DNA from: Caedimonas varicaedens
Lineage (GTDB): Bacteria > Pseudomonadota > Alphaproteobacteria > Caedimonadales > Caedimonadaceae
Reading direction: 5' to 3'
Assembly (NCBI GenBank): GCA_001192655.1
Contig: BBVC01000020.1
Coordinates: 50,204 to 82,203, forward strand
Length of the DNA stretch: 32,000 nucleotides
Positions 1,453 through 31,914 of this stretch are shown in pieces; the stretch's first letter is position 1; every line of letters begins with the position of its first letter. The notes under the pieces are model-generated. The model ran no database searches, was not told the origin of the DNA, and worked only from the letters and a program-made list of their open reading frames with translations. Made by a program: the position numbers and the translations under genes.

Positions 1453-1552
1453 GGAATAATCCTCTTAAAAATTATCCATAATATAACCATTTTAAAGGTT
1501 TTTAGCTATAGATTTTGAACGTCAACAAAGTTTAGGGGGCAGCGAGGTCGCT

Positions 1553-2389
1553 GTGGCTCTGGGTCTTTCCCCTTGGAAAAGTCCCTATGAGCTTTATATC
1601 GAAAAAACCACCAACGATCCTCTGTCTCTTCAGACTGCAACAACAACCCTTCAAGAATGGGGACATCGCTTGGAAAATATTGTTGCCCTTAAATATCAGA
1701 ATGAAACAGGGTATGCGGTCGTACCAGGATTTAAGTGTCACTACCTTAAATACCCCTTTCTCACCGCCAGCCCTGACCGCCTTGTTTATACCAAAGATGG
1801 ACATGGCAAGGCTCTTAGAGGTTTGGAGATCAAGACAGTGGATGCCTTCTGCCGAGAAAAATGGGGAACTTCGGGAACAACTTGGGACGGGGTAGATATC
1901 AACCAATGTCCCATCCCCTACCATTACTATATCCAAGTGGTCGCTTATATAGCGGTTCTGGGCATGGACACCTGGGACTTGGCTGTTCTGATCGGGGGTA
2001 ACGATTATCGGGTTTATACCTTTATGCGTAATCTTGACGTTGAAGACAAGATTCTCGAAGAAGCCCGCGCTTTTTGGGAAGGCTTCGTGGTTCAAAAGGT
2101 TGCTCCTCCCATCGACTTTATGTCCGAAGGGGTTCAGCGCTTGATTTCTAAACTCAACACCCCTTTGCAAGATGTGGAAACCTTTCTTGACCAGCATTGG
2201 ACAGACAAGGTGAAGCATCTCATGGATACCTCTGAAATGGCAACCCTTGCCACCAAGAAAGTCAAGGAAATGAAAGCCGAGCTTCGTCATTTTATGGGGG
2301 ACGCCTCTATCGCCAAGTTGCAAGGGGGTGGGGCTGTCTGCGTCAAGATCGCACGGGATGGCTCTGCTCGAATGAGTTTTAAAGTGTAA
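1553..2389 (+). CDS. YqaJ-like (lambda Exo-type PD-(D/E)XK) recombination exonuclease, 5'-truncated
   Basis: GGSEVAVALGLSPWKSPYELY N-terminal signature; SPDRL ... GLEIKT matches a D...ExK nuclease motif. The frame is open upstream to the breakpoint at 1517/1518 with no credible native start; the ORF-track start at 1553 is GTG. Confidence 0.75.
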   Translation: MALGLSPWKSPYELYIEKTTNDPLSLQTATTTLQEWGHRLENIVALKYQNETGYAVVPGFKCHYLKYPFLTASPDRLVYTKDGHGKALRGLEIKTVDAFCREKWGTSGTTWDGVDINQCPIPYHYYIQVVAYIAVLGMDTWDLAVLIGGNDYRVYTFMRNLDVEDKILEEARAFWEGFVVQKVAPPIDFMSEGVQRLISKLNTPLQDVETFLDQHWTDKVKHLMDTSEMATLATKKVKEMKAELRHFMGDASIAKLQGGGAVCVKIARDGSARMSFKV

Positions 2390-2421
2390 CGGAAATATAA
2401 AATAGGAAAGGAATAGAAAAA

Positions 2422-2982
2422 ATGACGCAAAATATCGAACAAGCTCTTGAGTCCATCAGCTTGGAAAAGCAAGCGCTGGAACAAAAGCAATCGGCTCTTC
2501 AACAAGAACATTCTGCTCTGGCAGGACAACTCAAGACGTTATCGCTGAGTTATCGTCAACTCTCGAAGGTCTGCGGAAAAGAGCAGAACGGAGAAGTGGG
2601 AATTTATACAGGCATGACTCTTACCGATGCCGTCCAAGATGTTCTCTCAACATGGGACAAGCCGATGACCACTGCCCAGATTGCCCATGCGTTGACTGAA
2701 GGGGGATATCTGTCAACATCAAGTCGGTTTAACAGCATGGTGCATTCTATTATTAAACGCCGAGACGAAACCTTTAAGCGTACGCCTGACGGAAAATGCT
2801 GGATGCTGTGCTCTCAAGTTTTGGAAATAGAAGAAGAAATAGAAGAGACCGACATAGCGGAAATTGATGATACAGAAATTGAGCAACAAGCAACGGAACC
2901 TGACAAGGCAGAAGACGATGAGACCGTTGAAAAGTTAGCTCAAGTGTTTGTCAAAAACAAGACGCTCACACTCTCTCTCTAA
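2422..2982 (+). CDS. Hypothetical protein: N-terminal coiled coil, central winged-helix (HARE-HTH-like) region, acidic tail
   Basis: ATG preceded by aggaaaggaa. The central stretch TLTDAVQDVLSTWDKPMTTAQIAHALTEGGY...FKRTPDGKCWML resembles HARE-type winged-helix domains. The C-terminus is Glu/Asp-rich. Confidence 0.6.
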   Translation: MTQNIEQALESISLEKQALEQKQSALQQEHSALAGQLKTLSLSYRQLSKVCGKEQNGEVGIYTGMTLTDAVQDVLSTWDKPMTTAQIAHALTEGGYLSTSSRFNSMVHSIIKRRDETFKRTPDGKCWMLCSQVLEIEEEIEETDIAEIDDTEIEQQATEPDKAEDDETVEKLAQVFVKNKTLTLSL

Positions 2983-3000
2983 AGAAAAGGATGGTGAATA

Positions 3001-3951
3001 ATGTTACAGAATAAAATACAAGCGATTGCGTCAATGCCTGAAGACAAAACTGTCTTCGGCAATATAGACGAGGTCTTTAAATTGGCTCAGTTTATAGCTA
3101 AAAGCGAATTCTTCCCTGCTTGGAAGAACAAGCCCCATGATGCGGCGGTGGCGATCCTGTTTGGTCAAAGTATTGGTCTTTCTTGGGGGCATAGCCTTCT
3201 CAATATTTCCATGATTAACGGAAGACCTACAGTGTGGGGGGATGCCATGCTGGCGTTGTGTAAAAAGTCCCCTTCGTTTGAAGATATGGACGAAGAGTAT
3301 AACGAAGAAACCAAGACGGCGATCTGCCTTGTCAAAAGAAAAGGATACAAAGAACAAGTCCGTACTTTTTCTTACGAGGACGCTCAACGGGCAGGACTGG
3401 TTAAAAAAGATAACTGGGTTAAGTATCCCAAGCGGATGCTTCAGATGCGCGCCAGAGCTTTTGCTTTACGGGATGTGTTCCCTGATATTCTGCAAGGGTT
3501 AAGTAGCGCTGAAGAAGTGATGGACTATCCTGATTCAGCGAAGCTTAAAGAGGCATCTACTTCTAATGTGGTCTCGTTCCCCATACAGGATAATTCTGTA
3601 ACGGAATTACCGCAGGAATCGCCTCGTGAAGCACCAAAGGCAATCCCTTATCAACGTCCTGAATGGATTGAGGGGGGTCTGCCTGTAACGCCTCGGTTAG
3701 AAAAGAAAGAAACGACTACTGAAGTCAGCGAAGTCAAGCCTGCTTCCCTCTCTCTCCAGCAATTTGAAGAGAATCTGGCAAAGGTCAGCAAGGGAATTTC
3801 TGTTACACCTGTTGTCAAACCCAAGACATCTGTTGATATGATGCGCGAACGCATGGAAGAGCAGAAGCGTCATCAGCAAGTAAAAGGCATGGAAGTTCTG
3901 GCACGATTGAAGCAAATGACAGCTTCTTTTCAATCTCAGGGGCAGGTGTAA
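3001..3951 (+). CDS. RecT/Red-beta (Bet) superfamily single-strand annealing protein
   Basis: NWVKYPKRMLQMRARAFALRDVF parallels the lambda Bet string PWQSHPKRMLRHKAMIQCARLAF as I recall it. It sits next to a YqaJ-type exonuclease. An aaggatgg Shine-Dalgarno lies upstream. Confidence 0.75.
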   Translation: MLQNKIQAIASMPEDKTVFGNIDEVFKLAQFIAKSEFFPAWKNKPHDAAVAILFGQSIGLSWGHSLLNISMINGRPTVWGDAMLALCKKSPSFEDMDEEYNEETKTAICLVKRKGYKEQVRTFSYEDAQRAGLVKKDNWVKYPKRMLQMRARAFALRDVFPDILQGLSSAEEVMDYPDSAKLKEASTSNVVSFPIQDNSVTELPQESPREAPKAIPYQRPEWIEGGLPVTPRLEKKETTTEVSEVKPASLSLQQFEENLAKVSKGISVTPVVKPKTSVDMMRERMEEQKRHQQVKGMEVLARLKQMTASFQSQGQV

Positions 3952-3952
3952 G

Positions 3953-4129
3953 ATGGACGTTTTAATGGTGCCCCGTGCCGAGGTTCGGCAAGTCCTCGTT
4001 GATCTGGAAACCTTCCTTGATCTGGGACTTTGGGGCTATCTCTATCAAGCCATGGCAGAGCTTGAGGAAATATTGGGTGAGGATGCCATCTCGTCAAAAA
4101 AGAACGAAAATCATGACTTTTCGACTTGA
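3953..4129 (+). CDS. Small hypothetical protein (58 aa), below the ORF-track cutoff
   Basis: ATG lies 1 nt after the annealing-protein stop (taa 3949-3951). Translation: MDVLMVPRAEVRQVLVDLETFLDLGLWGYLYQAMAELEEILGEDAISSKKNENHDFST. This composition is more protein-like than the overlapping 3975-4157 ORF. Confidence 0.35.
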   Translation: MDVLMVPRAEVRQVLVDLETFLDLGLWGYLYQAMAELEEILGEDAISSKKNENHDFST

Positions 4130-4232
4130 CGAGGTCTTGCGAGGCATATTAACGTGATAAAAATCAAGGGGGAAGCTCCTACAAAGAAAACTTCCCTCTC
4201 AATCTCGTATCATTCTAATGGAGTAAACATCA

Positions 4233-6806
4233 ATGAATGAATCAATAATGTTTATAAAAGAAAAACTAAGCCAAAAATTTTCATTTGGCAAGCGCTTTGA
4301 TAAAAAATCTGTCAAGCGCCTGATCACACACCTTGTTCTGCTGGCGTTCATCAACCAGAATCTGGCGTTTGCAACCAACGGCATCATCGAACTGGATTTT
4401 GAAGGGTCTGAGAACCCTCAACGACTTCATACTATTATTCCCTCTTCCAAGATTCAGGATGTGAGCTATATAGAAATTGATGCCGAACAGAAACAAGCCA
4501 CCCTTTATAAAAAAGGTGACGGTGAAGAAGTTCACCCGCTTGCGCCTTTTTCTCTTCCATCTGTTGCCGTTTATCAAGGAGATGTTGCTCATAACCTCTG
4601 GGGCTTGGAACAAGAGACGATCAAACTCTTTTTGCAAGCCAGTTCGGCTTGGCTTATCCCTTTAGATGAAGACGGCTATAAGCTGGAATTTAAGGGACGA
4701 CTGTTGGGGGGGATGAAGCAATCAGGAGGCAATCAAAAAAACATGATTTACCCATGTAGTAAAGCTCCAAAAACAGATACTTCCTGCTGGGTGAAAGGAG
4801 GAAATTTCTATGCTCCAGATTCTAGCTGGATTGGAAAAAATCCTGGAAACATCAGTATTATTTCTAATCCAAATTATAGCCAAACAGGTGGTGGCGGTGG
4901 CTCTAAAGGGACAAGGTCTGGAGGCTCTGGATGGCAGGGTATCTTAGGCAGGGGTTGGGCAGAAATAAAAGCGAATGGTGACAAAGCCAGAGATAGAATG
5001 CGCCAACAGCAAGAAAATCTTAAAAAGCTGAGTACTGTTGGTCAATCTGTTGAAATTTATAAACGACCAGAGATTATTATCCCCGAAAGTCCTTTCCCGC
5101 GAGTACAAACCTATCAACCTTCTACCAAAGAACCCTTTCTAACGGGACCATCCTTGGAGGCTCAATACTCAAGACTCAGGGTGCTGTACAATATGGCCGA
5201 TCGTTGGGAATGGTCGGAAATTTACGAGTATGCAAAAGTAATCGGTGTTTCCAGAGAGGAAATTAAAAAATACAATTTAACCCAAAGACATGCAAAGGGT
5301 GCAGGATTTTCTTCAGAGTATTTTAAAGAAGTAACAGAAGAGGAAGAAAGAAATGCGCTGAAAAAGGAGGAGCAGGAGGAAGAGAGAAAAGAAACAATCA
5401 GACAATATGAACAAGAGTCATCTGAGGATGCTGCATCTTTGTTTCATCATGTTCCTTCTCAGTATGAAGTAACTCCTAAATATTTTGCACAATGCGCTTC
5501 TGATGCGGGCATGACACCTTCTCAAGCGCTTAACATTATCCTCAACCCAGACGCTGATAATTTTTATGATCGCGCTAGGCTTGCCTCTAGACAGAAATGG
5601 CTGGGAGGTCCACAGAATACAACGGTGTTTGAACTTGAGGGGATTACCAATGCACAAGCTCATGAATATATTAAGCAAGGTTATCATGAAGGCGACATGC
5701 CTAAGATTTCTAACAATCTCATTTCTCAAAGAGGAGCTTCTTTGTTTGAGGGCGTAACCCATGATTACTTTGTTGCACAAGCTGAAAAAGCAAAAATGAC
5801 GCCTTCTCAGGCGCTTAGAATGATCTTCAATCCTACACCTGACAACTTCTACGATCGGGTTAGGCTTGCATCACAACAGAACTGGCTAGGAGGGAAGAAT
5901 GATACGACAGCGTTTGAGTTTGAAGACCTAACCAATGCACAAGCCTATCAATATATCGTTGATGGCTACAAACCTCATGATTTTCCTACATTGTCTAACA
6001 GGCTTATCTCTCAACGAGGGGCTGCTTTATTTGATGTAGAACCTCAATATTTTAGCAGACAAGCTGAAAAAGCGGGCATGACCTCTATAGAAGCGTTAAA
6101 TATCCTCATGAATCCTGCGCTTGAGAATTTCTATGATCGCGTGATGCTCGTCTCAAGAGATAATTGGTTAGGAGGACCACAGGATGGCACAGCGTTTGAG
6201 CTTGAGGAGTTGACGAATGAAGAGGCTTACCAATATCTCTCTGAAGGCTATAAACCTCATGATTTTCCTACATTATCTCATAGGCTCGTTTCTCAACGCT
6301 TGGGCATTGAGGCAGATCAAACCTTTGACGATCAAGTGCTGGAAGATTGGGGAGTCAATGATTGGCGGGAGAATCCCCGTAATGAACTCGAAGTGCCTCA
6401 ATTTATGCGAGTCGGATTGACGGACTATTTAGCTAAAAAAGCTTTTGAAAAAATAGTACGGACCTTTACCCCTAAAACTCAAGAGCTTTTGAAGGGATTA
6501 CATAGATATAAGAGAGAGCTTTTTGCGAGAGAAAAGATGCCAAAGAGCAAAACAACCCTTAAAGCTGCCGAACAGGAGCTTAAAGGTAAACAAATTCCTT
6601 TAGCTGAACAAAGAGGTAGAATTTATGACCATGTTGAAAAAGTTAAATCTTCTCAAAATGGTCTTGTACGGCTTATAAACGATATTAAAGCTCGTCTTGG
6701 CTATCCTGAGCTTCCTCAAATTGAAAGACAGGCATTAGAAAACCAACTATCTAAAACCAGTAAATTACTTGATCATACGGAAAAATTTGTACCAAGGAGT
6801 AAATGA
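4233..6806 (+). CDS. Large secreted repeat protein (857 aa), candidate toxin or effector; no recognised catalytic domain
   Basis: Signal-like N-terminus KSVKRLITHLVLLAFINQNLAFA, Gly-rich linker GGGGGSKGTRSGGSG, Glu/Lys-rich coil, three ~95-aa repeats, and a distinct Lys-rich helical C-terminal ~170 aa. Confidence 0.8.
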   Translation: MNESIMFIKEKLSQKFSFGKRFDKKSVKRLITHLVLLAFINQNLAFATNGIIELDFEGSENPQRLHTIIPSSKIQDVSYIEIDAEQKQATLYKKGDGEEVHPLAPFSLPSVAVYQGDVAHNLWGLEQETIKLFLQASSAWLIPLDEDGYKLEFKGRLLGGMKQSGGNQKNMIYPCSKAPKTDTSCWVKGGNFYAPDSSWIGKNPGNISIISNPNYSQTGGGGGSKGTRSGGSGWQGILGRGWAEIKANGDKARDRMRQQQENLKKLSTVGQSVEIYKRPEIIIPESPFPRVQTYQPSTKEPFLTGPSLEAQYSRLRVLYNMADRWEWSEIYEYAKVIGVSREEIKKYNLTQRHAKGAGFSSEYFKEVTEEEERNALKKEEQEEERKETIRQYEQESSEDAASLFHHVPSQYEVTPKYFAQCASDAGMTPSQALNIILNPDADNFYDRARLASRQKWLGGPQNTTVFELEGITNAQAHEYIKQGYHEGDMPKISNNLISQRGASLFEGVTHDYFVAQAEKAKMTPSQALRMIFNPTPDNFYDRVRLASQQNWLGGKNDTTAFEFEDLTNAQAYQYIVDGYKPHDFPTLSNRLISQRGAALFDVEPQYFSRQAEKAGMTSIEALNILMNPALENFYDRVMLVSRDNWLGGPQDGTAFELEELTNEEAYQYLSEGYKPHDFPTLSHRLVSQRLGIEADQTFDDQVLEDWGVNDWRENPRNELEVPQFMRVGLTDYLAKKAFEKIVRTFTPKTQELLKGLHRYKRELFAREKMPKSKTTLKAAEQELKGKQIPLAEQRGRIYDHVEKVKSSQNGLVRLINDIKARLGYPELPQIERQALENQLSKTSKLLDHTEKFVPRSK
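5481..6300 (+). repeat. Three tandem intragenic repeats of 285/282/~255-282 bp (95/94/~94 aa) in the 857-aa protein
   Basis: Repeat starts at 5481, 5766 and 6048 (YFAQCASDAGMTPSQAL / YFVAQAEKAKMTPSQAL / YFSRQAEKAGMTSIEAL). Shared pattern: NP..DNFYDRV.LAS..NWLGG...T.FE.E.LTN.QAYQYI..GYKPHDFPTLS.RLISQRGA.LF. Confidence 0.9.
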
Positions 6807-7210
6807 TGAAACTAAAGAGTGTTAAAAAAATCAGAGATGAATGGTGTGATTCTGACGATGAGAATATCTCTAAAGAGTCTTTGGAAATGCTCAAACATCA
6901 TCTGGAAGGAACTGACGTAGATAATTTGTGTGAAGCTATAAGCCTAGTAACAGATGCGCGCATTATGCAATTTGTACCTTTGATGGCAAAGCACTTAACA
7001 AATGAATGGTCTATCGTCAGAGAGTTTACAATTGGTAAATTACTAGGATTACTCAAACTTCCTGAATATGCTGAGATTGGTTTAAAAATGGCACAAGAAG
7101 ATGAGAGTAGTGGAGTGAGGTGTTTGGCGGCGACTCATTTAGGAGATGTTTTAGACAAAACACCAGAAAATTTGCGGCATATAATTGCTTCTTATATGTA
7201 CGATGTATGA
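6803..7210 (+). CDS. HEAT-like repeat protein (135 aa), candidate immunity or partner protein
   Basis: ATG 6803 overlaps the upstream stop TGA 6804-6806, with aaggag at 6794-6799. EDESSGVRCLAATHLGDVL resembles HEAT/PBS-lyase-type repeats. No signal peptide. Confidence 0.65.
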   Translation: MMKLKSVKKIRDEWCDSDDENISKESLEMLKHHLEGTDVDNLCEAISLVTDARIMQFVPLMAKHLTNEWSIVREFTIGKLLGLLKLPEYAEIGLKMAQEDESSGVRCLAATHLGDVLDKTPENLRHIIASYMYDV

Positions 7211-7270
7211 CTACAGATATTATGCAGACGAAGTTAAACAAGTATATTTATCAATCGGTCATGTCAGTCA

Positions 7271-7666
7271 ATGGGTATTTCTATCATTGATAGACCAACA
7301 ACTGTAGGTAATCCGGAATATAAGAAGCATATAATCCTGCTTTGCTTAGTCAATTCAAAGAGAAATATGCCTTATAATCGTAACAAGAAAAGAGCTCACT
7401 CTATGCCCCAGCCCATCCCCCTCAAACAAAACACGATCTGGCTTCGCACATTGTGCGGTCTGATTGACGAGGGAAGTTTTATTACTTCTGTAGACTTACA
7501 ATCTCGCGGAGATACGCTGACGGTATCGCTGGTGGCACGTCAACGGGAGGGCAACAAGGCTGAAACGACTGACACGATGAAACGCCTGAAAAAGTCCTTG
7601 AATCGGTGGCAGGGAAAGGTAGAGAGGAAAGAAGAGGGAGCATTTGTAAGGTTGACAAATTATTGA
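7271..7666 (+). CDS. Hypothetical protein (131 aa; alternative start ATG 7403 gives 87 aa)
   Basis: Open frame only. Composition switches from AT-rich to GC-richer near 7400, so the shorter form MPQPIPLKQNTIWLRTLCGLIDEG... may be the real product or a gene fragment. Confidence 0.4.
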   Translation: MGISIIDRPTTVGNPEYKKHIILLCLVNSKRNMPYNRNKKRAHSMPQPIPLKQNTIWLRTLCGLIDEGSFITSVDLQSRGDTLTVSLVARQREGNKAETTDTMKRLKKSLNRWQGKVERKEEGAFVRLTNY

Positions 7667-7897
7667 TTGGTCATTACAAAATAAAGAATATATTTAAAGA
7701 GAAAGATATGCCCATTCAATAGACTTGTTGCGTAAGTCTAAAAAGACTATCTGAGATTGGCCCAAACCAATGGTTAAAAAATCAGAAAAATGACTTACGT
7801 AGCAGATCTAATTTGAAAAACCATATTTTATAATCTCTTCAAATACTTCGTCAAATACAAACAGGCTATCATCTTCAAGGACATTGCGTTACATAAC

Positions 7898-8899
7898 ATG
7901 AAATCTCTCAATGTAGTTTCATTATTCTCAGGAGCGGGAGGTCTTGATTTAGGCTTTAAAAAAGCGAGCTTTCATACAATATACGCTAATGAATACGATA
8001 AAACTATATGGGCAACGTTTGAGCATAATTTTCCTAATGTAAAACTTGATAAAAGAGATATAAGGAAAATTGAAAGTATTGAAATACCTGATTGTGTTGG
8101 CATTATTGGCGGTCCTCCTTGTCAAAGCTGGAGTGAAGCAGGTTCTTTACGTGGAATTAATGATCCAAGGGGTCAACTATTTTTTGATTATATAAGAATT
8201 ATTAAAGATAAAAAACCTTTATTTTTTCTGGCTGAAAATGTATCAGGAATTTTGCATGATAGAAATAAGAAAGCATTTCAAAGCATTATAAAAAACTTTG
8301 AAGAAATTGGTTATAATGTGCAGTATAGATTACTAAATGCCAAATATTACAATGTGCCACAAGATAGAAAAAGAGTTTTTATAGTTGGCTTTTTGAATGA
8401 TATTAATTTTGAATTTCCTACATTGGATAATAAATTTAAAACTCTTAAAGATACTATATTTGATTTGAAAGATAATGCAAAAAGTTATAATGCAAAAGAG
8501 TTGGATAAGTTTAATCACGAATACTATACTGGAGGATTTTCAACTATTTTTATGTCAAGAAATCGCGTAAGAAGTTGGCATGAACAATCTTTCACAATTC
8601 AAGCAGGAGGTAGACACGCTCCATTGCATCCACAAGCTCCCACAATGGAGTTCATAGAACAAAATAAGAGAGCATTTAACAGAGAAAAAGAGCATTTATA
8701 TAGGAGATTTTCAGTGCGTGAATGCGCTAGAATCCAAACTTTTCCTGATGATTTTCAGTTTATTTATAATAATATTTTAGATGGATATAAAATGATTGGC
8801 AATGCCGTCCCTGTAAATTTAGCTTATGCAATAGCAACTCAAATTTTAAAGTATCTGTCATTAACAATACTACCATTTTACATGCGATTAACAATATAA
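7898..8899 (+). CDS. DNA (cytosine-5)-methyltransferase, M.HaeIII/M.NgoPII-like (probable GGCC specificity)
   Basis: Canonical m5C motifs in order: [10 protein letters not shown] (I), GGPPCQSWS (IV), ENV (VI), QDRKRVF (VIII), GNAVPVNLA (X). Long stretches match my recollection of M.HaeIII ([45 protein letters not shown]). Confidence 0.9.
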
Positions 8900-9705
8900 T
8901 TAATAACAATTTATATAATCTTGATAAATATAAGAAAATTAGTTATAATATTCGCATTAATACTACTGGAGAGGCTTTAGAAAGCCTAATCAAGGATGCT
9001 TTATGCGGTCAATTTCATTTAAATGAAAGAGAAAGAATATTATTACAAAGCAAATATTTTTCTTATACTGGTAATCAAAATAATCCTCCAGATTTAATTA
9101 TCAGAAATAGCGATGCTTTTGAAATTAAAAAAATTGAAAGCAATGAAGGTTCAATTGCTTTAAATAGCTCTTTCCCAAAAGATAAGTTGTACAGCAATAG
9201 CAGTATGATCACACATGCTTGCAAATATTGAGGATAGCTGGAAAGCAAAAGATATATGCTATATTATAGGATGCGTTGATAAAAAACAGTCAATAAAAAG
9301 TTTATGGTTTATTTATGGAGATTGCTATTGTGCAAATTCGGGGATATACACGAAGATAAAAGAAAAATAACAAATAGCATTCAAGAATTTGGTATTGAAT
9401 TAAGCGAGACAAATGAAATTGCAAAAATAAAGAAAATTGATCCTCTTGGAATAACCGATCTAAGAGTGCGAGGAATGTGGCATATAAAACATCCAAGCAA
9501 GGTGTTTCAATATATAACCACAAAACAATCAAAACCTCACATTAAAGCATTAATGCTGACAAGCAAATTTGAATCATTTGAGATGGGAATAAGAAAGCAA
9601 ATAGCAACTAAATGTAATTTGCAAAATGTAAAAATACAAAATCCTAATAATCCTGCAAATTTACTTGATGCAACTTTAATTGAATATGAATTTAAAGCTA
9701 GCTAA
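8860..9705 (+). pseudogene. NgoPII-like type II restriction endonuclease, decayed (no start codon, two compensating frameshifts)
   Basis: Frame 1 reads ...GEALESLIKDALCG...NNPPDLIIRNSDAFEIKKIES...ALNSSFPKDKL...ACKY, then stops at TGA 9229-9231. The reading continues in frame 2 (EDSWKAKDICYIIGCVDKK...YGDCYCA...) to TAA 9368-9370. It then returns to frame 1 (KITNSIQEFG...RVRGMW...NPNNPANL...) up to 9705. PPD...EIK fits a PD-(D/E)XK core. Confidence 0.7.
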
Positions 9706-10248: not shown

Positions 10249-10300
10249 TGTTAGCGCCGGAGGTAAAATGATACAGATCATCGGTTGAATTTTGATACAC
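10249..10300 (+). repeat. IS21 left terminal repeats L1 (10249-10277) and L2 (10278-10300)
   Basis: L1 tgttagcgccggaggtaaaatgatacaga matches the reverse complement of 14491-14519 at 20/29 positions. L2 catcggttgaattttgatacac repeats the GATACA core. Multiple terminal repeats are typical of IS21. Confidence 0.8.
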
Positions 10301-10309
10301 CCACGCATT

Positions 10310-10329
10310 AACTCCTTTTCAAAGGAGTT
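10310..10329 (+). promoter_or_regulatory. Perfect 9-bp inverted repeat overlapping the istA Shine-Dalgarno
   Basis: aactccttt-tc-aaaggagtt lies 9 nt upstream of istA ATG 10338 and is conserved in every IS21 left end in the window. Confidence 0.45.
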
Positions 10330-10337
10330 TAGGAATA

Positions 10338-10958
10338 ATGATTCAGTGGGAACAAACGATGGAAATAAAAATATTACGCCGACAAGGCAAGAGTCTAAGA
10401 AGGATCGCTCATGAGGTTGGTATGGCCGTGAATACAGTTCGTAAATATCTCCAACATGAAGGCAGACCTTTTTATAAGAAGAGAAAAACGGTTGAGACTA
10501 AACTTGATCCATATAAACCTTATTTGCAAGAAAGGGTCAAACAGGCTCGCCCTTTTTGTCTTCCTGCAACGGTTTTGCTACGGGAGATACGCGATCAAGG
10601 ATATAGGGGTGGCGTGACACAATTAAGGTTATATCTGAATTCTTTAACCCCTGTGGTCTGTGAGGAAGTCGTTAGATTTGAAACAGAACCAGGCGCACAA
10701 ATGCAGATGGATTGGATTGAATTTCGAAAAGGGAAAAACCCTCTATCCGCTTTTGTCGCAACCCTTGGTTATAGTCGGGTCAGCTATGTCTGCTTTGTGG
10801 AGAATGAGAAATTATCGACATTACTTCAATGCCATGAAGATGCATTTGATTATTTTGGCGGTATCCCCTCTCAAGCCCTTTATGACAATATGAAGACTGT
10901 TATTCTGGCAAGAGATGCCTATGGTTTAGGGAAGCATCGCTATGCTGGGATGTTATAG
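10338..10958 (+). pseudogene. istA: istA N-terminal fragment (206 aa) terminated by the IS630 end
   Basis: Same sequence as the N-terminal ~200 aa of IstA. The stop TAG 10956-10958 is the first three bases of the inserted IS630. Confidence 0.9.
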
Positions 10959-11604
10959 CTAACAACATATAAAACGGTCATATTTTATTATCCTGAAATA
11001 ATTGCTCGATAGAACACCTTTTTTTGCGTCTAATTGCTTTTGCTTGTGCCCATTTATGCTCGATGGGATTAAAGTCTGGAGAATAAGGAGGCAGATACAG
11101 CACGATATGCCCTGCCTCAGCAATTGCTTTTTGCATCGCTTTTCCCTTATGAAAGGTGGCATTATCCAAAATAAGGACGCTTTTAGGAGGCAGTTTCGGA
11201 AGTAAATCGTCAATGATCCATTGTGTAAACACCTCGGTATTAATCGAGAAGCAGAACAAGCTCACGGTCAATAGCAGACCTTGGAATAAGGCGCCGATGA
11301 CATTCGTTCGTCCCTTTGCTCCCCAATCATGAATCCCCTCACATCTCTTTCCTTTTGGAGAATAACCATGAGTGCGTGGCATATGGTGTGCAAATCCAGA
11401 TTCATCAAGAGAAATGATAGGATGCCCTGCTTCTTCATAAGCTTTCAGCTCTTGACAAAAAGTAGCACGCTTTTCTGGATCGGCCTTGGGATGTTTGAGC
11501 GTTTTTTTTATAGGTCACATTCAAGCGTTTTAAAGCGTGCCATATCCCCATAGAGCTCACACCAAGACGTTCTGCTCTCTCGTACTGATAATCATCAGTG
11601 ATAA
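10956..11604 (-). mobile_element. IS630-family element, orfB-side 649 bp, truncated by the next IS21 left end
   Basis: Collinear with 605-1252. The junction gataa|tgttagcgcc lies at 11604/11605. Confidence 0.9.
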
Positions 11605-11693
11605 TGTTAGCGCCGGAGGTAAAATGATACAGATCATCGGTTGAATTTTGATACACCCACGCATTAACTCCTTTTCAAAGGAGTTTAGGAATA

Positions 11694-12323
11694 ATGATTC
11701 AGTGGGAACAAACGATGGAAATAAAAATATTACGCCGACAAGGCAAGAGTCTAAGAAGGATCGCTCATGAGGTTGGTATGGCCGTGAATACAGTTCGTAA
11801 ATATCTCCAACATGAAGGCAGACCTTTTTATAAGAAGAGAAAAACGGTTGAGACTAAACTTGATCCATATAAACCTTATTTGCAAGAAAGGGTCAAACAG
11901 GCTCGCCCTTTTTGTCTTCCTGCAACGGTTTTGCTACGGGAGATACGCGATCAAGGATATAGGGGTGGCGTGACACAATTAAGGTTATATCTGAATTCTT
12001 TAACCCCTGTGGTCTGTGAGGAAGTCGTTAGATTTGAAACAGAACCAGGCGCACAAATGCAGATGGATTGGATTGAATTTCGAAAAGGGAAAAACCCTCT
12101 ATCCGCTTTTGTCGCAACCCTTGGTTATAGTCGGGTCAGCTATGTCTGCTTTGTGGAGAATGAGAAATTATCGACATTACTTCAATGCCATGAAGATGCA
12201 TTTGATTATTTTGGCGGTATCCCCTCTCAAGCCCTTTATGACAATATGAAGACTGTTATTCTGGCAAGAGATGCCTATGGTTTAGGGAAGCATCGCTTTA
12301 ATTCTGGGATGTTAGATTGCTAA
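11694..12323 (+). pseudogene. istA: istA N-terminal part, interrupted by IS630
   Basis: 209-aa ORF ending ...KHRFNSGMLDC, with its stop inside the IS630 end. Confidence 0.9.
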
Positions 12324-13220
12324 CAACATATAAAACGGTCATATTTTATTATCCTGAAATAATTGCTCGATAGAACACCTTTTTTTGCGTCTAATTGCTT
12401 TTGCTTGTGCCCATTTATGCTCGATGGGATTAAAGTCTGGAGAATAAGGAGGCAGATACAGCACGATATGCCCTGCCTCAGCAATTGCTTTTTGCATCGC
12501 TTTTCCCTTATGAAAGGTGGCATTATCCAAAATAAGGACGCTTTTAGGAGGCAGTTTCGGAAGTAAATCGTCAATGATCCATTGTGTAAACACCTCGGTA
12601 TTAATCGAGAAGCAGAACAAGCTCACGGTCAATAGCAGACCTTGGAATAAGGCGCCGATGACATTCGTTCGTCCCTTTGCTCCCCAATCATGAATCCCCT
12701 CACATCTCTTTCCTTTTGGAGAATAACCATGAGTGCGTGGCATATGGTGTGCAAATCCAGATTCATCAAGAGAAATGATAGGATGCCCTGCTTCTTCATA
12801 AGCTTTCAGCTCTTGACAAAAAGTAGCACGCTTTTCTGGATCGGCCTTGGGATGTTTGAGCGTTTTTTTTATAGGTCACATTCAAGCGTTTTAAAGCGTG
12901 CCATATCCCCATAGAGCTCACACCAAGACGTTCTGCTCTCTCGTACTGATAAGCATCAGGATAAAGCTGTATATCTTCTTTAAGGGCATCCATATTAAGC
13001 TTAGTGGCTGGTTTATGACGATGTGTCTGAGGCTCAGGCTTCTTGACCCATCTGACAAGACTGGTCACTCCAACACCAAAGAGATCCGCCGTTTCAGCAA
13101 AACTCAAATTTTTCTTCTTTTTTACAGATAAAACACGAAGTCTAAAATCTAATGAATAGGTCATGGAATAATCCTCTTAAAAATTATCCATAATATAACC
13201 ATTTTAAAGGTTTTTAGCTA
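12317..13220 (-). mobile_element. IS630-family element, essentially complete, nested in istA (variant orfB-side junction)
   Basis: IRL-side junction ...tttttagcta|TA|gattttgcc at 13220-13222. The orfB-side junction reads gttagatt|gctaacaac instead of gtta|tagctaacaac. Confidence 0.85.
12339..13164 (-). CDS. IS630-family transposase orfA/orfB (apparently intact; needs the A8 shift at 12863-12870)
   Basis: Encodes the same proteins as 627-1452. Confidence 0.8.
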
Positions 13221-21704: not shown

Positions 21705-21935
21705 TCATATAAACCATTCCACATTTTTCCAATTCCCAAGATTGGCTTTTTTGGCTGCGATGCGCGTTTTCCAGTCTCCCACATGAATTTCAAGCTTGTG
21801 ACCATCAGGATCAAGGAAATACAGAGATTCTCCCGGAGATGTGTTTTCCTTAAAGACAGCAGAGCCTGATGCCAGAATTTTTTCTGCCAATGATTTGAAA
21901 TCTTTTTCAGAAACAGAAAAAGCGATATGAGTGTT
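21705..21935 (-). pseudogene. FosA/FosX-like VOC (glyoxalase-fold) protein, C-terminal ~77 codons only, truncated by IS630
   Basis: NTHIAFSVSEKDFKSLAEKILASGSAVFKENTSPGESLYFLDPDGHKLEIHVGDWKTRIAA parallels the FosA C-terminal half as I recall it. The frame runs into TA 21935-21936 and the IS630 end at 21937. Confidence 0.7.
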
Positions 21936-21936
21936 A

Positions 21937-22345
21937 TAGCTAAAAACCTTTAAAATGGTTATATTATGGATAATTTTTAAGAGGATTATTCCATGACCTA
22001 TTCATTAGATTTTAGACTTCGTGTTTTATCTGTAAAAAAGAAGAAAAATTTGAGTTTTGCTGAAACGGCGGATCTCTTTGGTGTTGGAGTGACCAGTCTT
22101 GTCAGATGGGTCAGGAAGCCTGAGCCTCAGACACATCGTCATAAACCAGCCACTAAGCTTAATATGGATGCCCTTAAAGAAGATATACAGCTTTATCCTG
22201 ATGCTTATCAGTACGAGAGAGCAGAACGTCTTGGTGTGAGCTCTATGGGGATATGGCACGCTTTAAAACGCTTGAATGTGACCTATAAAAAAAACGCTCA
22301 AACATCCCAAGGCCGATCCAGAAAAGCGTGCTACTTTTTGTCAAG
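21937..22345 (+). mobile_element. IS630-family element, first 409 bp (orfA side), split by an IS21 insertion at GTCAAG
   Basis: Starts tagctaaaaacc and ends ...ctactttttgtcaag. The IS21 right end tgtcaacatcgg follows directly. Confidence 0.9.
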
Positions 22346-23534
<1,189 letters not shown>

Positions 23535-24411
23535 TATGGATAATTTTTAAGAGGATTATTCCATGACCTATTCATTAGATTTTAGACTTCGTGTTTTTAT
23601 CTGTAAAAAAGAAGAAAAATTTGAGTTTTGCTGAAACGGCGGATCTCTTTGGTGTTGGAGTGACCAGTCTTGTCAGATGGGTCAAGAAGCCTGAGCCTCA
23701 GACACATCGTCATAAACCAGCCACTAAGCTTAATATGGATGCCCTTAAAGAAGATATACAGCTTTATCCTGATGCTTATCAGTACGAGAGAGCAGAACGT
23801 CTTGGTGTGAGCTCTATGGGGATATGGCACGCTTTAAAACGCTTGAATGTGACCTATAAAAAAAACGCTCAAACATCCCAAGGCCGATCCAGAAAAGCGT
23901 GCTACTTTTTGTCAAGAGCTGAAAGCTTATGAAGAAGCAGGGCATCCTATCATTTCTCTTGATGAATCTGGATTTGCACACCATATGCCACGCACTCATG
24001 GTTATTCTCCAAAAGGAAAGAGATGTGAGGGGATTCATGATTGGGGAGCAAAGGGACGAACGAATGTCATCGGCGCCTTATTCCAAGGTCTGCTATTGAC
24101 CGTGAGCTTGTTCTGCTTCTCGATTAATACCGAGGTGTTTACACAATGGATCATTGACGATTTACTTCCGAAACTGCCTCCTAAAAGCGTCCTTATTTTG
24201 GATAATGCCACCTTTCATAAGGGAAAAGCGATGCAAAAAGCAATTGCTGAGGCAGGGCATATCGTGCTGTATCTGCCTCCTTATTCTCCACACTTTAATC
24301 CCATCGAGCATAAATGGGCACAAGCAAAAGCAATTAGACGCAAAAAAAGGTGTTCTATCGAGCAATTATTTCAGGATAATAAAATATGACCGTTTTATAT
24401 GTTGTTAGCTA
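23535..24411 (+). mobile_element. IS630-family copy lacking its first 28 bp, with an orfA frameshift (T5 versus T4 near 23583-23587)
   Basis: Begins tatggataattt and ends ...gttgttagcta at the istA TA site (TA 24412-24413). orfB 23985-24389 carries SPHFNP instead of SPDFNP. Confidence 0.9.
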
Positions 24412-25121
24412 TAACATCCCAGAATTAAAGCGATGCTTCCCTAAACCATAGGCATCTCTTGCCAGAATAACAGTCTTCATATTGTCATAAAGGGCTTGAG
24501 AGGGGATACCGCCAAAATAATCAAATGCATCTTCATGGCATTGAAGTAATGTCGATAATTTCTCATTCTCCACAAAGCAGACATAGCTGACCCGACTATA
24601 ACCAAGGGTTGCGACAAAAGCGGATAGAGGGTTTTTCCCTTTTCGAAATTCAATCCAATCCATCTGCATTTGTGCGCCTGGTTCTGTTTCAAATCTAACG
24701 ACTTCCTCACAGACCACAGGGGTTAAAGAATTCAGATATAACCTTAATTGTGTCACGCCACCCCTATATCCTTGATCGCGTATCTCCCGTAGCAAAACCG
24801 TTGCAGGAAGACAAAAAGGGCGAGCCTGTTTGACCCTTTCTTGCAAATAAGGTTTATATGGATCAAGTTTAGTCTCAACCGTTTTTCTCTTCTTATAAAA
24901 AGGTCTGCCTTCATGTTGGAGATATTTACGAACTGTATTCACGGCCATACCAACCTCATGAGCGATCCTTCTTAGACTCTTGCCTTGTCGGCGTAATATT
25001 TTTATTTCCATCGTTTGTTCCCACTGAATCATTATTCCTAAACTCCTTTGAAAAGGAGTTAATGCGTGGGTGTATCAAAATTCAACCGATGATCTGTATC
25101 ATTTTACCTCCGGCGCTAACA
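24412..25121 (-). mobile_element. IS21-family 5' part (left end plus istA N-terminal 207 codons)
   Basis: Reverse complement of the 11605-12316 type sequence. ORF 24409-25032. The left end ...ccggcgctaaca finishes at 25121. Confidence 0.9.
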
Positions 25122-25600
25122 GTCAAGAGCTGAAAGCTTATGAAGAAGCAGGGCATCCTATCATTTCTCTTGATGAATCTGGATTTGCACACCATATGCC
25201 ACGCACTCATGGTTATTCTCCAAAAGGAAAGAGATGTGAGGGGATTCATGATTGGGGAGCAAAGGGACGAACGAATGTCATCGGCGCCTTATTCCAAGGT
25301 CTGCTATTGACCGTGAGCTTGTTCTGCTTCTCGATTAATACCGAGGTGTTTACACAATGGATCATTGACGATTTACTTCCGAAACTGCCTCCTAAAAGCG
25401 TCCTTATTTTGGATAATGCCACCTTTCATAAGGGAAAAGCGATGCAAAAAGCAATTGCTGAGGCAGGGCATATCGTGCTGTATCTGCCTCCTTATTCTCC
25501 AGACTTTAATCCCATCGAGCATAAATGGGCACAAGCAAAAGCAATTAGACGCAAAAAAAGGTGTTCTATCGAGCAATTATTTCAGGATAATAAAATATGA
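25070..25600 (+). CDS. Chimeric ORF: 17 codons read outward from the IS21 left end, fused in frame to the IS630 DDE domain (176 aa)
   Basis: GTG 25070 lies inside the IS21 terminal repeat. The reading MYQNSTDDLYHFTSGAN then continues as SQELKAYEEAGHPIISLDESGF... to the normal transposase stop. Expression is unknown. Confidence 0.3.
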   Translation: MYQNSTDDLYHFTSGANSQELKAYEEAGHPIISLDESGFAHHMPRTHGYSPKGKRCEGIHDWGAKGRTNVIGALFQGLLLTVSLFCFSINTEVFTQWIIDDLLPKLPPKSVLILDNATFHKGKAMQKAIAEAGHIVLYLPPYSPDFNPIEHKWAQAKAIRRKKRCSIEQLFQDNKI

Positions 25601-25622
25601 CCGTTTTATATGTTGTTAGCTA
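25122..25622 (+). mobile_element. IS630-family last 501 bp (from GTCAAG to the orfB-side end)
   Basis: Starts gtcaagagctgaaagc, repeating the 6 bp that end the 409-bp fragments. 409+501-6 = 904, the length of a complete copy. Confidence 0.9.
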
Positions 25623-26332
25623 TAACATCCCAGAATTAAAGCGATGCTTCCCTAAACCATAGGCATCTCTTGCCAGAATAACAGTCTTCATATTGTCATA
25701 AAGGGCTTGAGAGGGGATACCGCCAAAATAATCAAATGCATCTTCATGGCATTGAAGTAGTGTCGATAATTTCTCATTCTCCACAAAGCAGACATAGCTG
25801 ACCCGACTATAACCAAGGGTTGTGACAAAAGCGGATAGAGGGTTTTTCCCTTTTCGAAATTCAATCCAATCCATCTGCGTTTGTGCGCCTGGTTCTGTTT
25901 CAAATCTAACGACTTCCTCACAGACCACAGGGGTTAAAGAATTCAGATATAACCTTAATTGTGTCACGCCACCCCTATATCCTTGATCGCGTATCTCCCG
26001 TAGCAAAACCGTTGCAGGAAGACAAAAAGGGCGAGCCTGTTTGACCCTTTCTTGCAAATAAGGTTTATATGGATCAAGTTTAGTCTCAACCGTTTTTCTC
26101 TTCTTATAAAAAGGTCTGCCTTCATGTTGGAGATATTTACGAACTGTATTCACGGCCATACCAACCTCATGAGCGATCCTTCTTAGACTCTTGCCTTGTC
26201 GGCGTAATATTTTTATTTCCATCGTTTGTTCCCACTGAATCATTATTCCTAAACTCCTTTGAAAAGGAGTTAATGCGTGGGTGTATCAAAATTCAACCGA
26301 TGATCTGTATCATTTTACCTCCGGCGCTAACA
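25623..26332 (-). mobile_element. IS21-family 5' part, second tandem unit
   Basis: Same as 24412-25121 with a few substitutions (for example GAQTQMDW, FVTTLGY in ORF 25620-26243). Confidence 0.9.
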
Positions 26333-26831
26333 GTCAAGAGCTGAAAGCTTATGAAGAAGCAGGGCACCCTATCATTTCTCTTGATGAATCTGGATTTGCA
26401 CACCATATGCCACGCACTCATGGTTATTCTCCAAAAGGAAAGAGATGTGAGGGGATTCATGACTGGGGAGCAAAGGGACGAACGAATGTCATCGGCGCCT
26501 TATTCCAAGGTCTGCTATTGACCGTGAGCTTGTTCCGCTTCTCGATTAATACCGAGTGTTACACAATGGATCATTGACGATTTACTTCCGAAACTGCCTC
26601 CTAAAAGCGTCCTTATTTTGGATAATGCCACCTTTCATAAGGGAAAAGCGATGCAAAAAGCAATTGCTGAGGCAGGGCATATCGTGCTGTATCTGCCTCC
26701 TTATTCTCCAGACTTTAATCCCATCGAGCATAAATGGGCACAAGCAAAAGCAATTAGACGCAAAAAAAGGTGTTCTATCGAGCAATTATTTCAGGATAAT
26801 AAAATATGACCGTTTTATATGTTGTTAGCTA
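26333..26831 (+). mobile_element. IS630-family last ~499 bp, second tandem unit, frameshifted
   Basis: Same as 25122-25622, except accgagtgttacac replaces accgaggtgtttacac (two 1-nt deletions). This splits orfB into ORFs 26281-26577 and 26618-26809. Confidence 0.9.
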
Positions 26832-27059
26832 TAGTTGTTCTAAAGTAAATTTCATTTTAAGGTCTCCTATAACCGAATACTGGTGTAATAATCGTCTTGC
26901 CATTCTTGCTCGTCTGAAGAGCTTTCCAATTCCCCGCAACTAAGGCCGAGCTTGCTGGAGGGCTCCTCGTCTTCTTCAGGGAAGTCCCAGTGAATCAACG
27001 ATTCTTGGGATTCTTGAACAGAAGGCATCCAGTTTTGTATGAACAGAAAATTTGACGTA
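26832..27059. other. 228-bp orphan chromosomal remnant between two IS630 ends
   Basis: On the minus strand it holds the 3' end of an ORF open to the IS boundary (...NWMPSVQESQESLIHWDFPEEDEEPSSKLGLSCGELESSSDEQEWQDDYYTSIRL, stop at 26867-26869). An aggagacc Shine-Dalgarno then precedes 8 codons (MKFTLEQL) that run into the IS end. Confidence 0.5.
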
Positions 27060-27468
27060 TAGCTAAAAACCTTTAAAATGGTTATATTATGGATAATTTT
27101 TAAGAGGATTATTCCATGACCTATTCATTAGATTTTAGACTTCGTGTTTTATCTGTAAAAAAGAAGAAAAATTTGAGTTTTGCTGAAACGGCGGATCTCT
27201 TTGGTGTTGGAGTGACCAGTCTTGTCAGATGGGTCAAGAAGCCTGAGCCTCAGACACATCGTCATAAACCAGCCACTAAGCTTAATATGGATGCCCTTAA
27301 AGAAGATATACAGCTTTATCCTGATGCTTATCAGTACGAGAGAGCAGAACGTCTTGGTGTGAGCTCTATGGGGATATGGCACGCTTTAAAACGCTTGAAT
27401 GTGACCTATAAAAAAAACGCTCAAACATCCCAAGGCCGATCCAGAAAAGCGTGCTACTTTTTGTCAAG
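27060..27468 (+). mobile_element. IS630-family first 409 bp, split by IS21 at GTCAAG (same junction as 22345/22346)
   Basis: Same as 21937-22345 apart from point differences. TA at 27058-27059. Confidence 0.9.
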
Positions 27469-27551
27469 TGTCAACATCGGCTGAAATTTGATACAGATTT
27501 TTAAAAATCCTCGGATGAAAATTGATACACCTGAGATAAAAAAATAAGGGT

Positions 27552-28352
<801 letters not shown>

Positions 28353-28356
<4 letters not shown>

Positions 28357-29386
28357 GCTGCCTCCAGAATTCTGTCGTAAACAGAAAGAGGATGCTGAAG
28401 GGGGTTGTGAGGAGCCCATTCAGGAGCTTTAATCTCTGGCTCTTTAACACAACGAGCTAATGAAACATCTCCTCGATAAGGAAGCCCAAGAGGCTGCAAA
28501 GTCGAACGTTCTCTTTCTAACCTTTCAAGAGGAACCTCTTTTGTGGTGCCGTGAACACGCTGATTAGCTGTTTCTTTTAACCACTTTAAAACTTCCATAT
28601 TAGCGGTTTGAACATCGAGTGTTAGACCTGCACTTTTAAGCCGAGAAGCAAGAGGGTTATAAAAGCTGTAACGCAAGTAACGATTAAATCTCTCTACTTT
28701 TCCTTTCGTCTTGGCGCGATAAGGACGACACACTTTCAGTTGAAATCCATGATGCTTGGCAAAATCTAACATCCCAGAATTAAAGCGATGCTTCCCTAAA
28801 CCATAGGCATCTCTTGCCAGAATAACAGTCTTCATATTGTCATAAAGGGCTTGAGAGGGGATACCGCCAAAATAATCAAATGCATCTTCATGGCATTGAA
28901 GTAATGTCGATAATTTCTCATTCTCCACAAAGCAGACATAGCTGACCCGACTATAACCAAGGGTTGCGACAAAAGCGGATAGAGGGTTTTTCCCTTTTCG
29001 AAATTCAATCCAATCCATCTGCATTTGTGCGCCTGGTTCTGTTTCAAATCTAACGACTTCCTCACAGACCACAGGGGTTAAAGAATTCAGATATAACCTT
29101 AATTGTGTCACGCCACCCCTATATCCTTGATCGCGTATCTCCCGTAGCAAAACCGTTGCAGGAAGACAAAAAGGGCGAGCCTGTTTGACCCTTTCTTGCA
29201 AATAAGGTTTATATGGATCAAGTTTAGTCTCAACCGTTTTTCTCTTCTTATAAAAAGGTCTGCCTTCATGTTGGAGATATTTACGAACTGTATTCACGGC
29301 CATACCAACCTCATGAGCGATCCTTCTTAGACTCTTGCCTTGTCGGCGTAATATTTTTATTCCATCGTATGTTCCCACTGAATCAT
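28353..29386 (-). pseudogene. istA: istA, full-length reading frame but the start region is frameshifted
   Basis: The normal start ATGATTCAGTGGGAACA at 29386 hits TAA after 9 codons (gaataaaaat versus gaaataaaaat elsewhere). The long ORF only opens from a TTG inside the terminal repeat. The body shows the DDE-type core (MDWIEF..., YDNMKTV..., RPYRAKTKGKVER). Confidence 0.8.
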
Positions 29387-29475
29387 TATTCCTAAACTCC
29401 TTTGAAAAGGAGTTAATGCGTGGGTGTATCAAAATTCAACCGATGATCTGTATCATTTTACCTCCGGCGCTAACA

Positions 29476-30140: not shown

Positions 30141-30389
30141 TATCTTCTTTAAGGGCATCCATATTAAGCTTAGTGGCTGGTTTATGACGATGTGTCTGAG
30201 GCTCAGGCTTCTTGACCCATCTGACAAGACTGGTCACTCCAACACCAAAGAGATCCGCCGTTTCAGCAAAACTCAAATTTTTCTTCTTTTTTACAGATAA
30301 AACACGAAGTCTAAAATCTAATGAATAGGTCATGGAATAATCCTCTTAAAAATTATCCATAATATAACCATTTTAAAGGTTTTTAGCTA
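30141..30389 (-). mobile_element. Second copy of the IS630 orfA-side 249 bp (direct repeat of 29893-30140)
   Basis: Starts TAtcttctttaagg, the internal TA site of orfA, and ends at the terminus tagcta at 30389. ORF 30124-30333. Confidence 0.9.
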
Positions 30390-30550: not shown

Positions 30551-31843
<1,293 letters not shown>

Positions 31844-31914
31844 TAGCTAAAAACTTTAAAATGGTTATATTATGGATAATTTTTAAGAGGATTATTCCAT
31901 GACCTATTCAAGAT
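31844..31914 (+). mobile_element. IS630-family stub (~70 bp of the orfA-side end) left at the istA TA site after an internal deletion
   Basis: tagctaaaaactttaaaatgg...ccatgacctattca then jumps into istA sequence. The exact breakpoint is ambiguous within 31911-31917. Confidence 0.75.

Follow-up and report, generated by a model that had tools for sequence, protein, structure and literature searches.

Caedimonas (formerly Caedibacter) varicaedens is the kappa killer symbiont of Paramecium biaurelia (PMC4645214). Here, we present an analysis of two overlapping genes in a stretch of 32,000 nucleotides of its genome (contig BBVC01000020.1, positions 50,204 to 82,203), which is referred to as the window and in which all coordinates are given. 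The first gene encodes a protein of 857 amino acids (aa) with a predicted signal peptide and a C-terminal domain of the toxin family Ntox28, and the second encodes a protein of 135 aa from a HEAT-repeat family. In our assessment, the two very probably form a polymorphic toxin-immunity system on a mobile-element remnant of C. varicaedens. Comparison with related loci revealed all three features that a polymorphic locus predicts, namely the Ntox28 end, the swapping of C-termini and a downstream gene that varies together with them. The same architecture had been proposed in an earlier note made from the sequence of this DNA, and the known toxin domain, the swapped C-termini and the co-varying downstream gene now support it.

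The gene pair, its Ntox28 end and its HEAT-like partner

Both genes lie on the forward strand, and in line with the proposed reading they are called the toxin and the immunity gene. Their main features, each with its basis in brackets, are:

4233-6806, + strand: toxin gene, 857 aa, Cva_00546 (open reading frame; identical to P0001, named by NCBI/UniRef)
6456-6803, + strand: Ntox28 toxin module, residues 742-857 (PF15605 match)
6624-6632, + strand: predicted catalytic core Y798-D799-H800 (hhalign to E. coli 536 CdiA-CT)
6794-6799, + strand: Shine-Dalgarno-like aaggag for the immunity gene, within the last codons of the toxin gene (sequence)
6803-7210, + strand: immunity gene of the HEAT-repeat family, truncated, 135 aa (open reading frame; family alignment)

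The product of the 857-aa open reading frame (ORF) is identical to Cva_00546 and that of the 135-aa ORF to Cva_00547. The toxin stop codon TGA at 6804-6806 overlaps the ATG at 6803 (ATGA), and a second ATG at 6806 would give a product of 134 aa. The two ORFs, their overlap and the aaggag had all been read by the earlier note and are present where it placed them. A promoter and terminator scan gave no enrichment over shuffled sequences, and no promoter-like site was found between recT and the toxin start. The pair had also been called undescribed, which does not hold for the single proteins, as UniProt already labels them automatically as 'Bacterial toxin 28 domain-containing protein' (857 aa) and 'HEAT repeat protein' (135 aa). 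It does hold for the pairing, the N-terminal family and the junction motif, which we found described nowhere.

The toxin identity is carried by the C-terminus, which was searched against the Pfam toxin models as the earlier note had suggested. Ntox28 (PF15605; gathering score 25 bits) matches residues 762-854 with 37.4 bits when the whole protein is scanned and with 40.7 bits when the C-terminal 168 aa are scanned alone, covering profile positions 16/19-112 of 113. The same family includes the CdiA-CT tRNase of uropathogenic E. coli 536, the activity of which needs CysK, and tRNA anticodon-loop nuclease activity is known only for the E. coli relatives of the domain (PMC5562914, PMC9990079). 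For comparison, the cdiA-cdiI end (L013) was taken from the E. coli 536 genome. In an hhalign comparison with the profile of the window clade (E 0.0039 over 37 columns), Y798-D799-H800 aligned with W176-D177-H178 of the 536 toxin, and the histidine of this core is invariant across the Ntox28 clade of the window toxin. The C-terminus, in which no catalytic motif had been recognised before, thus contains the Y-D-H core of Ntox28.

The two toxins end differently. The 536 toxin terminates in ...LKGYGI and the window clade in ...FVPR(S/G/N/K)xK, which in the window protein reads FVPRSK. The GYGI tail inserts into the CysK active site, and without such a tail the window toxin was rejected as a member of the CysK-activated Ntox28 subfamily. 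Dependence on CysK would therefore not be expected. The CdiA-CT of E. coli 536 itself scores just 19.3 bits on the Pfam Ntox28 model, below the gathering score. The model is centred on sequences closer to the Caedimonas clade, and the window protein is the more typical member of the family.

The partner gene varies together with the toxin end. A search recovered 17 relatives of the 135-aa protein, and at every readable locus they directly follow a protein ending in Ntox28. The ~115-aa Ntox28 module also terminates four other architectures, and a HEAT-like gene follows Ntox28 ends in five protein architectures and six locus types altogether. In L001, a 195-aa homologue with 68% identity to the 135-aa protein follows an 871-aa Ntox28 member of the window family, and in L010 a homologue follows a 945-aa family member lacking the junction motif described below. 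In L007 and L009 the preceding proteins carry DUF637 and measure 2159 aa and 1650 aa, respectively, with an ALENN motif before the Ntox28 toxin in L007, while in L005 the homologue follows a 118-aa orphan Ntox28 cassette that adjoins a SUKH_6 gene. Further, Ca. Paracaedimonas acanthamoebae (L015, CP008940.1 25425-33227) encodes a 2406-aa protein with DUF637 and Ntox28 followed by a 190-aa HEAT-like immunity protein, which is related to the HEAT-like family at an hhalign E of 2.6e-57. CP008940.1 is a 65-kb mobilisable plasmid of this amoeba symbiont, and both its toxin and its immunity protein are annotated merely as hypothetical. The 4-nt overlap between toxin and immunity gene recurs in L005, L007/L009 and L010. 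Behind other C-terminal classes there are unrelated small ORFs of 96, 121/127 and 182 aa; these downstream ORFs are homologous within a C-terminal class and unrelated between classes.

The HEAT-like strings of the earlier note are clear for the family and remain below threshold for the 135-aa protein alone (E 0.04). HEAT or HEAT_2 is matched by 14-15 of the 16 members of the immunity family, with a best E of 1e-8, and alphaRep/HEAT structures were recovered with the profile of the family (E 6e-6). A search of NCBIfam returned no usable match for the 135-aa protein, which has no signal peptide. An identity with CdiI_3 (PF18616), the family that CdiI(536) matches at E 2e-28, was rejected because none of the 16 HEAT-like proteins matched this profile at E<=1. 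A weak hhalign match links CdiI(536) with the first half of the HEAT-like family (E 0.0012, shared 'LCRAI'), and the two may be distantly related.

A polymorphic family sharing the N-terminus

The body that precedes the Ntox28 end is built from the following parts:

4233-4373, + strand: putative signal peptide of Sec type, residues 1-47 (from the sequence itself)
4374-4721, + strand: family-defining N-terminal domain, residues 47/48-163, IIELDF...RLH...YKLEFKGxLLGG (family alignment)
4722-4937, + strand: variable linker, residues 164-235, containing two Cys and a Gly-rich tract (sequence; low model confidence)
5148-5345, + strand: diverged internal copy of a ~60-aa helical 'pre-junction' module, residues 306-371 (BLASTP)
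5436-6302, + strand: three tandem ~95-aa helical repeats, residues 402-497, 498-592 and 593-690 (BLASTP)
6324-6365, + strand: junction motif FDDQVLEDWGVNDW, residues 698-711, between the shared body and the variable C-terminus (family alignment)

The signal peptide and the N-terminal domain are common to the family members. A word-indexed search returned 14 relatives of the window toxin, all of them metagenomic, and a profile of the N-terminal domain (residues 47-163) found just 28 proteins among 1.84 billion cluster representatives. In all matches with informative positions the domain is N-terminal, and the longer matches measure 491-1774 aa. A scan of 185,579 species-representative genomes yielded a single locus, on a 10.5-kb plasmid-like contig of a metagenome-assembled genome. 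The family occurs in many freshwater metagenome contigs and, at several loci, on plasmid- or phage-like elements, as well as in two protist symbionts of the Caedimonadaceae.

The C-termini of these proteins differ. Of the first 15 family members, 12 have the junction FDDQVLEDWGxKDW. In 11 of these it stands at a distance of 134-202 aa from the C-terminus, while P0004 ends 23 aa after it. When the last 110 residues of the 24 longer members were clustered, they fell into 12 C-terminal classes, the sequences of which are unrelated past the junction. Four of the classes could be named: Ntox28, the colicin-E3-like cytotoxic domain PF09000 (P0010, E 7e-9), Ntox37 (E 1e-16) and DUF4258. The variability in homologous loci that the earlier note had proposed to look for is thus plain, with 12 unrelated classes behind the same N-terminal body, and the distinct C-terminal module that it had described in the window protein comprises ~160 aa and starts at the conserved junction, residue 698. 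In a separate observation, the C-terminus of P0039 (925 aa) coincides with the C-terminal half of a 182-aa protein whose gene follows the toxin gene of L004 (2222-2770), which points either to a fused toxin and immunity gene or to a frameshift in the assembly.

The Sec-like N-terminus noticed earlier can be read as a long basic n-region (KKSVKR), the h-region LITHLVLLAFI and the cleavage motif NQNLAFA, cut before T (A-F-A followed by T), and the cleavage site NLAFA/T is kept in most family members. The N-terminal domain behind it had been given as ~190 aa; the conserved part covers ~117 aa (47-163), and residues 164-235 make up the variable Cys- and Gly-rich linker, which is itself mosaic among homologues, with two alternative versions. 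The domain is presumed to be a trafficking or surface module. Its AlphaFold2 (AF2) model, with a predicted local distance difference test score (pLDDT) of 73.9, has seven strands and one helix and found no neighbour among PDB folds (best E 0.65, template modelling score below 0.3).

The central parts are mosaic as well. Only some members have the ~95-aa repeats, while in others a ~60-aa helical module, present once to three times, ends in YMKEV right before the junction. The window toxin retains a diverged copy of this module further upstream, related to those of P0007, P0013 and P0035 at BLASTP E 6e-6 to 2e-5, and its end reads YFKEV/TEEE where the relatives have YMKEV/FDDQ. The three repeats of the window protein, which BLASTP places where the earlier note had counted them, are pairwise 50-63% identical (E 1e-36 to 1e-44) and invisible at the DNA level to Tandem Repeats Finder. 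In the full-length AF2 model, which is poor overall (mean pLDDT 51), they alone are predicted with confidence, as all-helical segments at pLDDT 70-90.

Searches of known families and structures returned little for these modules. No Pfam family matched the N-terminal domain, the ~95-aa repeats or the FDDQVLEDWG junction, and the repeats have no counterpart in Pfam, PDB or BFVD. A Foldseek search of the full-length model against PDB and BFVD gave nothing at E<0.08, a sequence search of PDB with the toxin found nothing, and NCBIfam offered no usable match for it, merely a sub-threshold FlbB. Searching with a profile of the ~95-aa repeat gave no match, even within the family itself, and is therefore uninformative. 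Against PHROGs, the toxin has one weak match within repeat 3 (phrog_2846, function unknown, E 1e-4). A sub-threshold GH-E nuclease match in repeat 2 (E 0.03) was rejected as a chance result, as it was gone when the repeats were scanned alone.

Genomic context and weighing of the explanations

The toxin gene is preceded by a recombination module, which marks the locus as belonging to a mobile-element remnant:

1553-3951, + strand: phage-type recombination module of YqaJ exonuclease, a 186-aa ORF and RecT (Pfam and PHROG matches)

The adjacency of RecT and the toxin is conserved in L001. A search of phage genomes by tblastn remained unmatched. The acidic 186-aa protein between YqaJ and RecT (2422-2982) shows a sub-threshold HARE-HTH match (E 0.009) and is absent from the other fetched loci. 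Downstream of the pair, the stretch 7898-9705 holds an intact C5 cytosine methylase (PF00145, E 6e-100) and, behind it, part of an NgoPII-type restriction enzyme. The fragment comprises the C-terminal third of the enzyme (133 aa, profile positions 162-258 of 262), and GC content falls to 0.30-0.34 over this methylase and endonuclease stretch. The orphan methylase is the leftover of a decayed restriction-modification system. The island (~1550-9700) is bracketed by directly repeated, near-identical IS21::IS630 nests (1-1500 and 10249-11690) of insertion sequences (IS), in which an IS630-family element (HTH_Tnp_IS630 and DDE_3) sits at the same site within istA of an IS21-family element. Further IS stretches lie at 11605-13200 and 21900-31900, and the window holds at least four copies of the nest. 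This arrangement looks like a composite transposon or a recent IS bloom.

The elements that carry the related toxin loci have RepA_C, a cold-shock gene and two HU genes, in some cases together with a ResT/TelK telomere resolvase. Behind the immunity gene, three of the loci have a TolC-like outer-membrane (OEP) gene (L002 11732-13332, L003 5687-7341 and L004 2794-4428), and its product may serve linear plasmid-prophage-like replicons as an export partner of their own.

Under the polymorphic toxin-immunity reading, the toxin would be exported through Sec, and its N-terminal domain would bring it to the cell surface or into the medium, possibly with the TolC-like partner of some related loci. By analogy with the E. 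coli 536 relative, the Ntox28 domain would then cleave the anticodon loop of tRNA in the cytoplasm of the target cell via His800, and the cytoplasmic HEAT-repeat protein would bind and block the toxin in the producer. The likeliest targets would be competing bacteria, for example related symbionts in a shared host or food vacuole, since the same toxin-immunity module sits on giant DUF637-bearing proteins.

Several observations weigh against this reading. The Ntox28 motif given in the founding survey is [DN]HxxE (PMC3482391), and its glutamate corresponds to Glu181 in the 536 toxin. At this position, all five members of the window clade have an invariant lysine (Lys803 in the window toxin), and the adjacent Glu802 is not conserved. 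With lysine in place of glutamate, the active-site chemistry of the clade may differ from that of the 536 toxin. Additionally, the profile of the C-terminal clade matches no PDB chain by sequence, and the AF2 model of the toxin C-terminus is of low confidence, which leaves a fold like the all-alpha one of the solved CdiA-CT(536) structure unconfirmed. No TolC-like gene or other secretion partner is present within the window. The DUF637 giants are without a Pfam-detectable two-partner secretion (TPS) domain or FHA repeats, and the link to contact-dependent interbacterial delivery is weak. Finally, the frame of the immunity gene breaks at codon 135, after ...SYMYDV, and with a truncated immunity gene the pair may not be balanced or functional here.

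This truncation bears on the possibility that the pair has the proposed identity and is no longer functional, decaying along with the IS-ridden island. Relatives of the immunity protein measure 179-197 aa (~190 aa in 15 of 16), so the small cytoplasmic partner of the earlier note, correct as an ORF, represents merely the 5' two-thirds of a ~190-aa gene. The missing part is still visible:

7208-7377, + strand: out-of-frame remnant of the immunity gene's last ~55 codons (DNA alignment with L001, L005 and L010)

Fragments of the remnant lie in three frames (MTTDI / IYQSVM; MGISIIDRPTTVGNPEYKK; and LLSQFKEKYAL followed by a stop), and at least three frame changes within these last 170 bp are needed to read it, the indels being visible in the DNA alignment with L001, L005 and L010. 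DNA similarity to the syntenic L001 ends at 7242. A 131-aa ORF without a family match (7271-7666) starts within the remnant; it is probably not a real gene, because its first ~25 residues are immunity sequence in the original frame. The restriction enzyme cut down to a 133-aa fragment, the dense IS21 and IS630 copies of the region and the lack of a secretion partner nearby would also fit decay.

The frame breaks reflect either decay or 454 sequencing error. The C. varicaedens genome is a 454/Newbler draft (PMC4645214), and indel errors are therefore possible; not every indel lies in a homopolymer, and the 2.6-kb toxin ORF has none. Loss of immunity function is not certain, as the retained 134 residues hold all detectable HEAT repeats and the immunity protein of E. 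coli 536 is just 128 aa long, so that a product of 134 aa could still work. Compared with P0002, the toxin ORF is complete and uninterrupted. Further, the ratio of nonsynonymous to synonymous substitution rates (dN/dS; Nei-Gojobori, window against L001) is 0.35 for the whole toxin, 0.22-0.30 for its individual domains and 0.24 for the ~700 aa of N-terminal and central modules, and 0.08 for the retained part of the immunity gene, this last value being approximate with its dS near saturation. With ratios well below 1, both genes evolved under constraint. On balance, we regard a non-functional relic as unlikely, though it deserves to be kept in mind.

The same constraint speaks against a second explanation, in which the pair mainly stabilises its mobile element by killing cells or hosts that lose it. 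An addiction role of this type has been proposed for polymorphic toxin systems in the Holosporales symbiont of Bodo saltans (PMC8163844), and it would agree with family loci that adjoin replication genes on small plasmid-like or linear elements and with the identical IS nests that bracket the window island. However, an intracellular device would have no need of a conserved signal peptide and ~700 aa of constrained modules, and the swapping of C-termini with matched immunity is a signature of inter-strain competition. Addiction as the main role is therefore improbable.

A third explanation directs the toxin at the host: it would be, or contribute to, the killer-trait toxin that reaches sensitive paramecia when R-bodies rupture the food vacuole, with the tRNase acting on eukaryotic tRNA and the immunity gene merely shielding the bacterium before export. 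The source organism is a killer symbiont (PMC4645214), the killer toxin is unidentified and thought to be a protein, and its determinants have been linked to plasmids or phage particles (PMC11909080, PMC7297999). The locus adjoins phage-type recombination genes, its relatives lie on plasmid- or phage-like elements, and tRNA is a universal target. Yet no reb (R-body) match was found among the window ORFs or in the related loci with Pfam data, and the family occurs in many freshwater metagenome contigs without a known tie to killer strains. The plasmid of an amoeba symbiont uses the same toxin-immunity module, an immunity protein without a signal peptide leaves host resistance unexplained, and polymorphic toxins with cognate immunity are typically interbacterial. 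A host-directed role, which the earlier note had offered as an equal alternative, was neither supported nor refuted by the data, and we rate it as highly improbable. The specific proposal that this toxin or its polymorphic family is the Paramecium killer-trait protein toxin, borne on a phage- or plasmid-derived element, freed inside a sensitive Paramecium as ingested kappa cells lyse and their R-bodies burst the food vacuole, and with different C-terminal modules behind the differing pre-lethal symptoms of killer stocks, is a long shot.

Significance and comparison with known systems

Polymorphic toxins are common and the pair itself is unsurprising; what the locus adds is a known toxin domain on a new and rare delivery architecture. 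The data define a rare, self-contained family, set apart by an N-terminal domain and a junction motif of its own, in which at least 12 toxin ends are exchanged. Several of these C-termini are candidates for new toxin domains, as are their partner genes for new immunity domains. In addition, a HEAT-repeat immunity family is now linked to Ntox28, for which the table of the founding survey lists no immunity protein; Imm-HEAT is a recognised immunity class there, given for other toxins (PMC3482391). The locus also offers a cloneable candidate for the killer-trait toxin of Caedimonas, with a low prior probability.

One of the nearest characterised systems is the CdiA-CT/CdiI pair of E. coli 536. 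The two systems share the toxin family PF15605 with an aligned aromatic-Asp-His core and the 4-nt overlap of toxin stop and immunity gene. They differ in delivery: the window protein is without TPS, FHA and VENN, no cdiB (ShlB/FhaC-type) occurs among the window ORFs, and a Sec signal and another N-terminal domain take their place for predicted export. They also differ in the toxin itself, with Lys803 for Glu181 and no GYGI, and in the immunity partner, which is HEAT-like and not CdiI_3. Membership of the 857-aa protein in CdiA, the toxin of contact-dependent inhibition (CDI) and the type V secretion system (T5SS), was rejected on the absence of TPS, FHA and VENN.

The nuclease colicins (E3, E5 and D) resemble the window system in their carriage on mobile elements and in the combination of a C-terminal RNase with a tightly linked immunity gene, and the P0010 member of the window family even carries the PF09000 cytotoxic domain of colicin E3. 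In contrast to the colicins, the window family has a Sec signal instead of release by a lysis protein, no colicin translocation or receptor domains were detected in it, and the window toxin comes from a bacterium with an obligate intracellular lifestyle.

The Holosporales symbiont of Bodo saltans belongs to the same order and shares the lifestyle, and it likewise has large secreted toxins, downstream immunity genes and orphan modules (PMC8163844). The toxin domains named for it are different ones (AHH nuclease and metallopeptidase toxin, no Ntox28), and no sequence relationship to the window system was found, the N-terminal regions lying outside the comparison.

In overall organisation, the window system resembles the Sec-exported polymorphic toxins that Zhang et al. 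(2012) grouped as a type II secretion system (T2SS) class, and the same survey reported Ntox28 in alphaproteobacteria with N-termini of both T2SS and T5SS type (PMC3482391). Signal peptide, repeats, a variable C-terminal toxin and an adjacent immunity gene are shared with this class, whereas the N-terminal domain, the ~95-aa repeats and the FDDQVLEDWG junction of the window toxin belong to no Pfam family. The window family falls into none of the named delivery classes (CDI, Rhs, LXG, MafB and MuF) and is best described as a small new Sec-dependent family.

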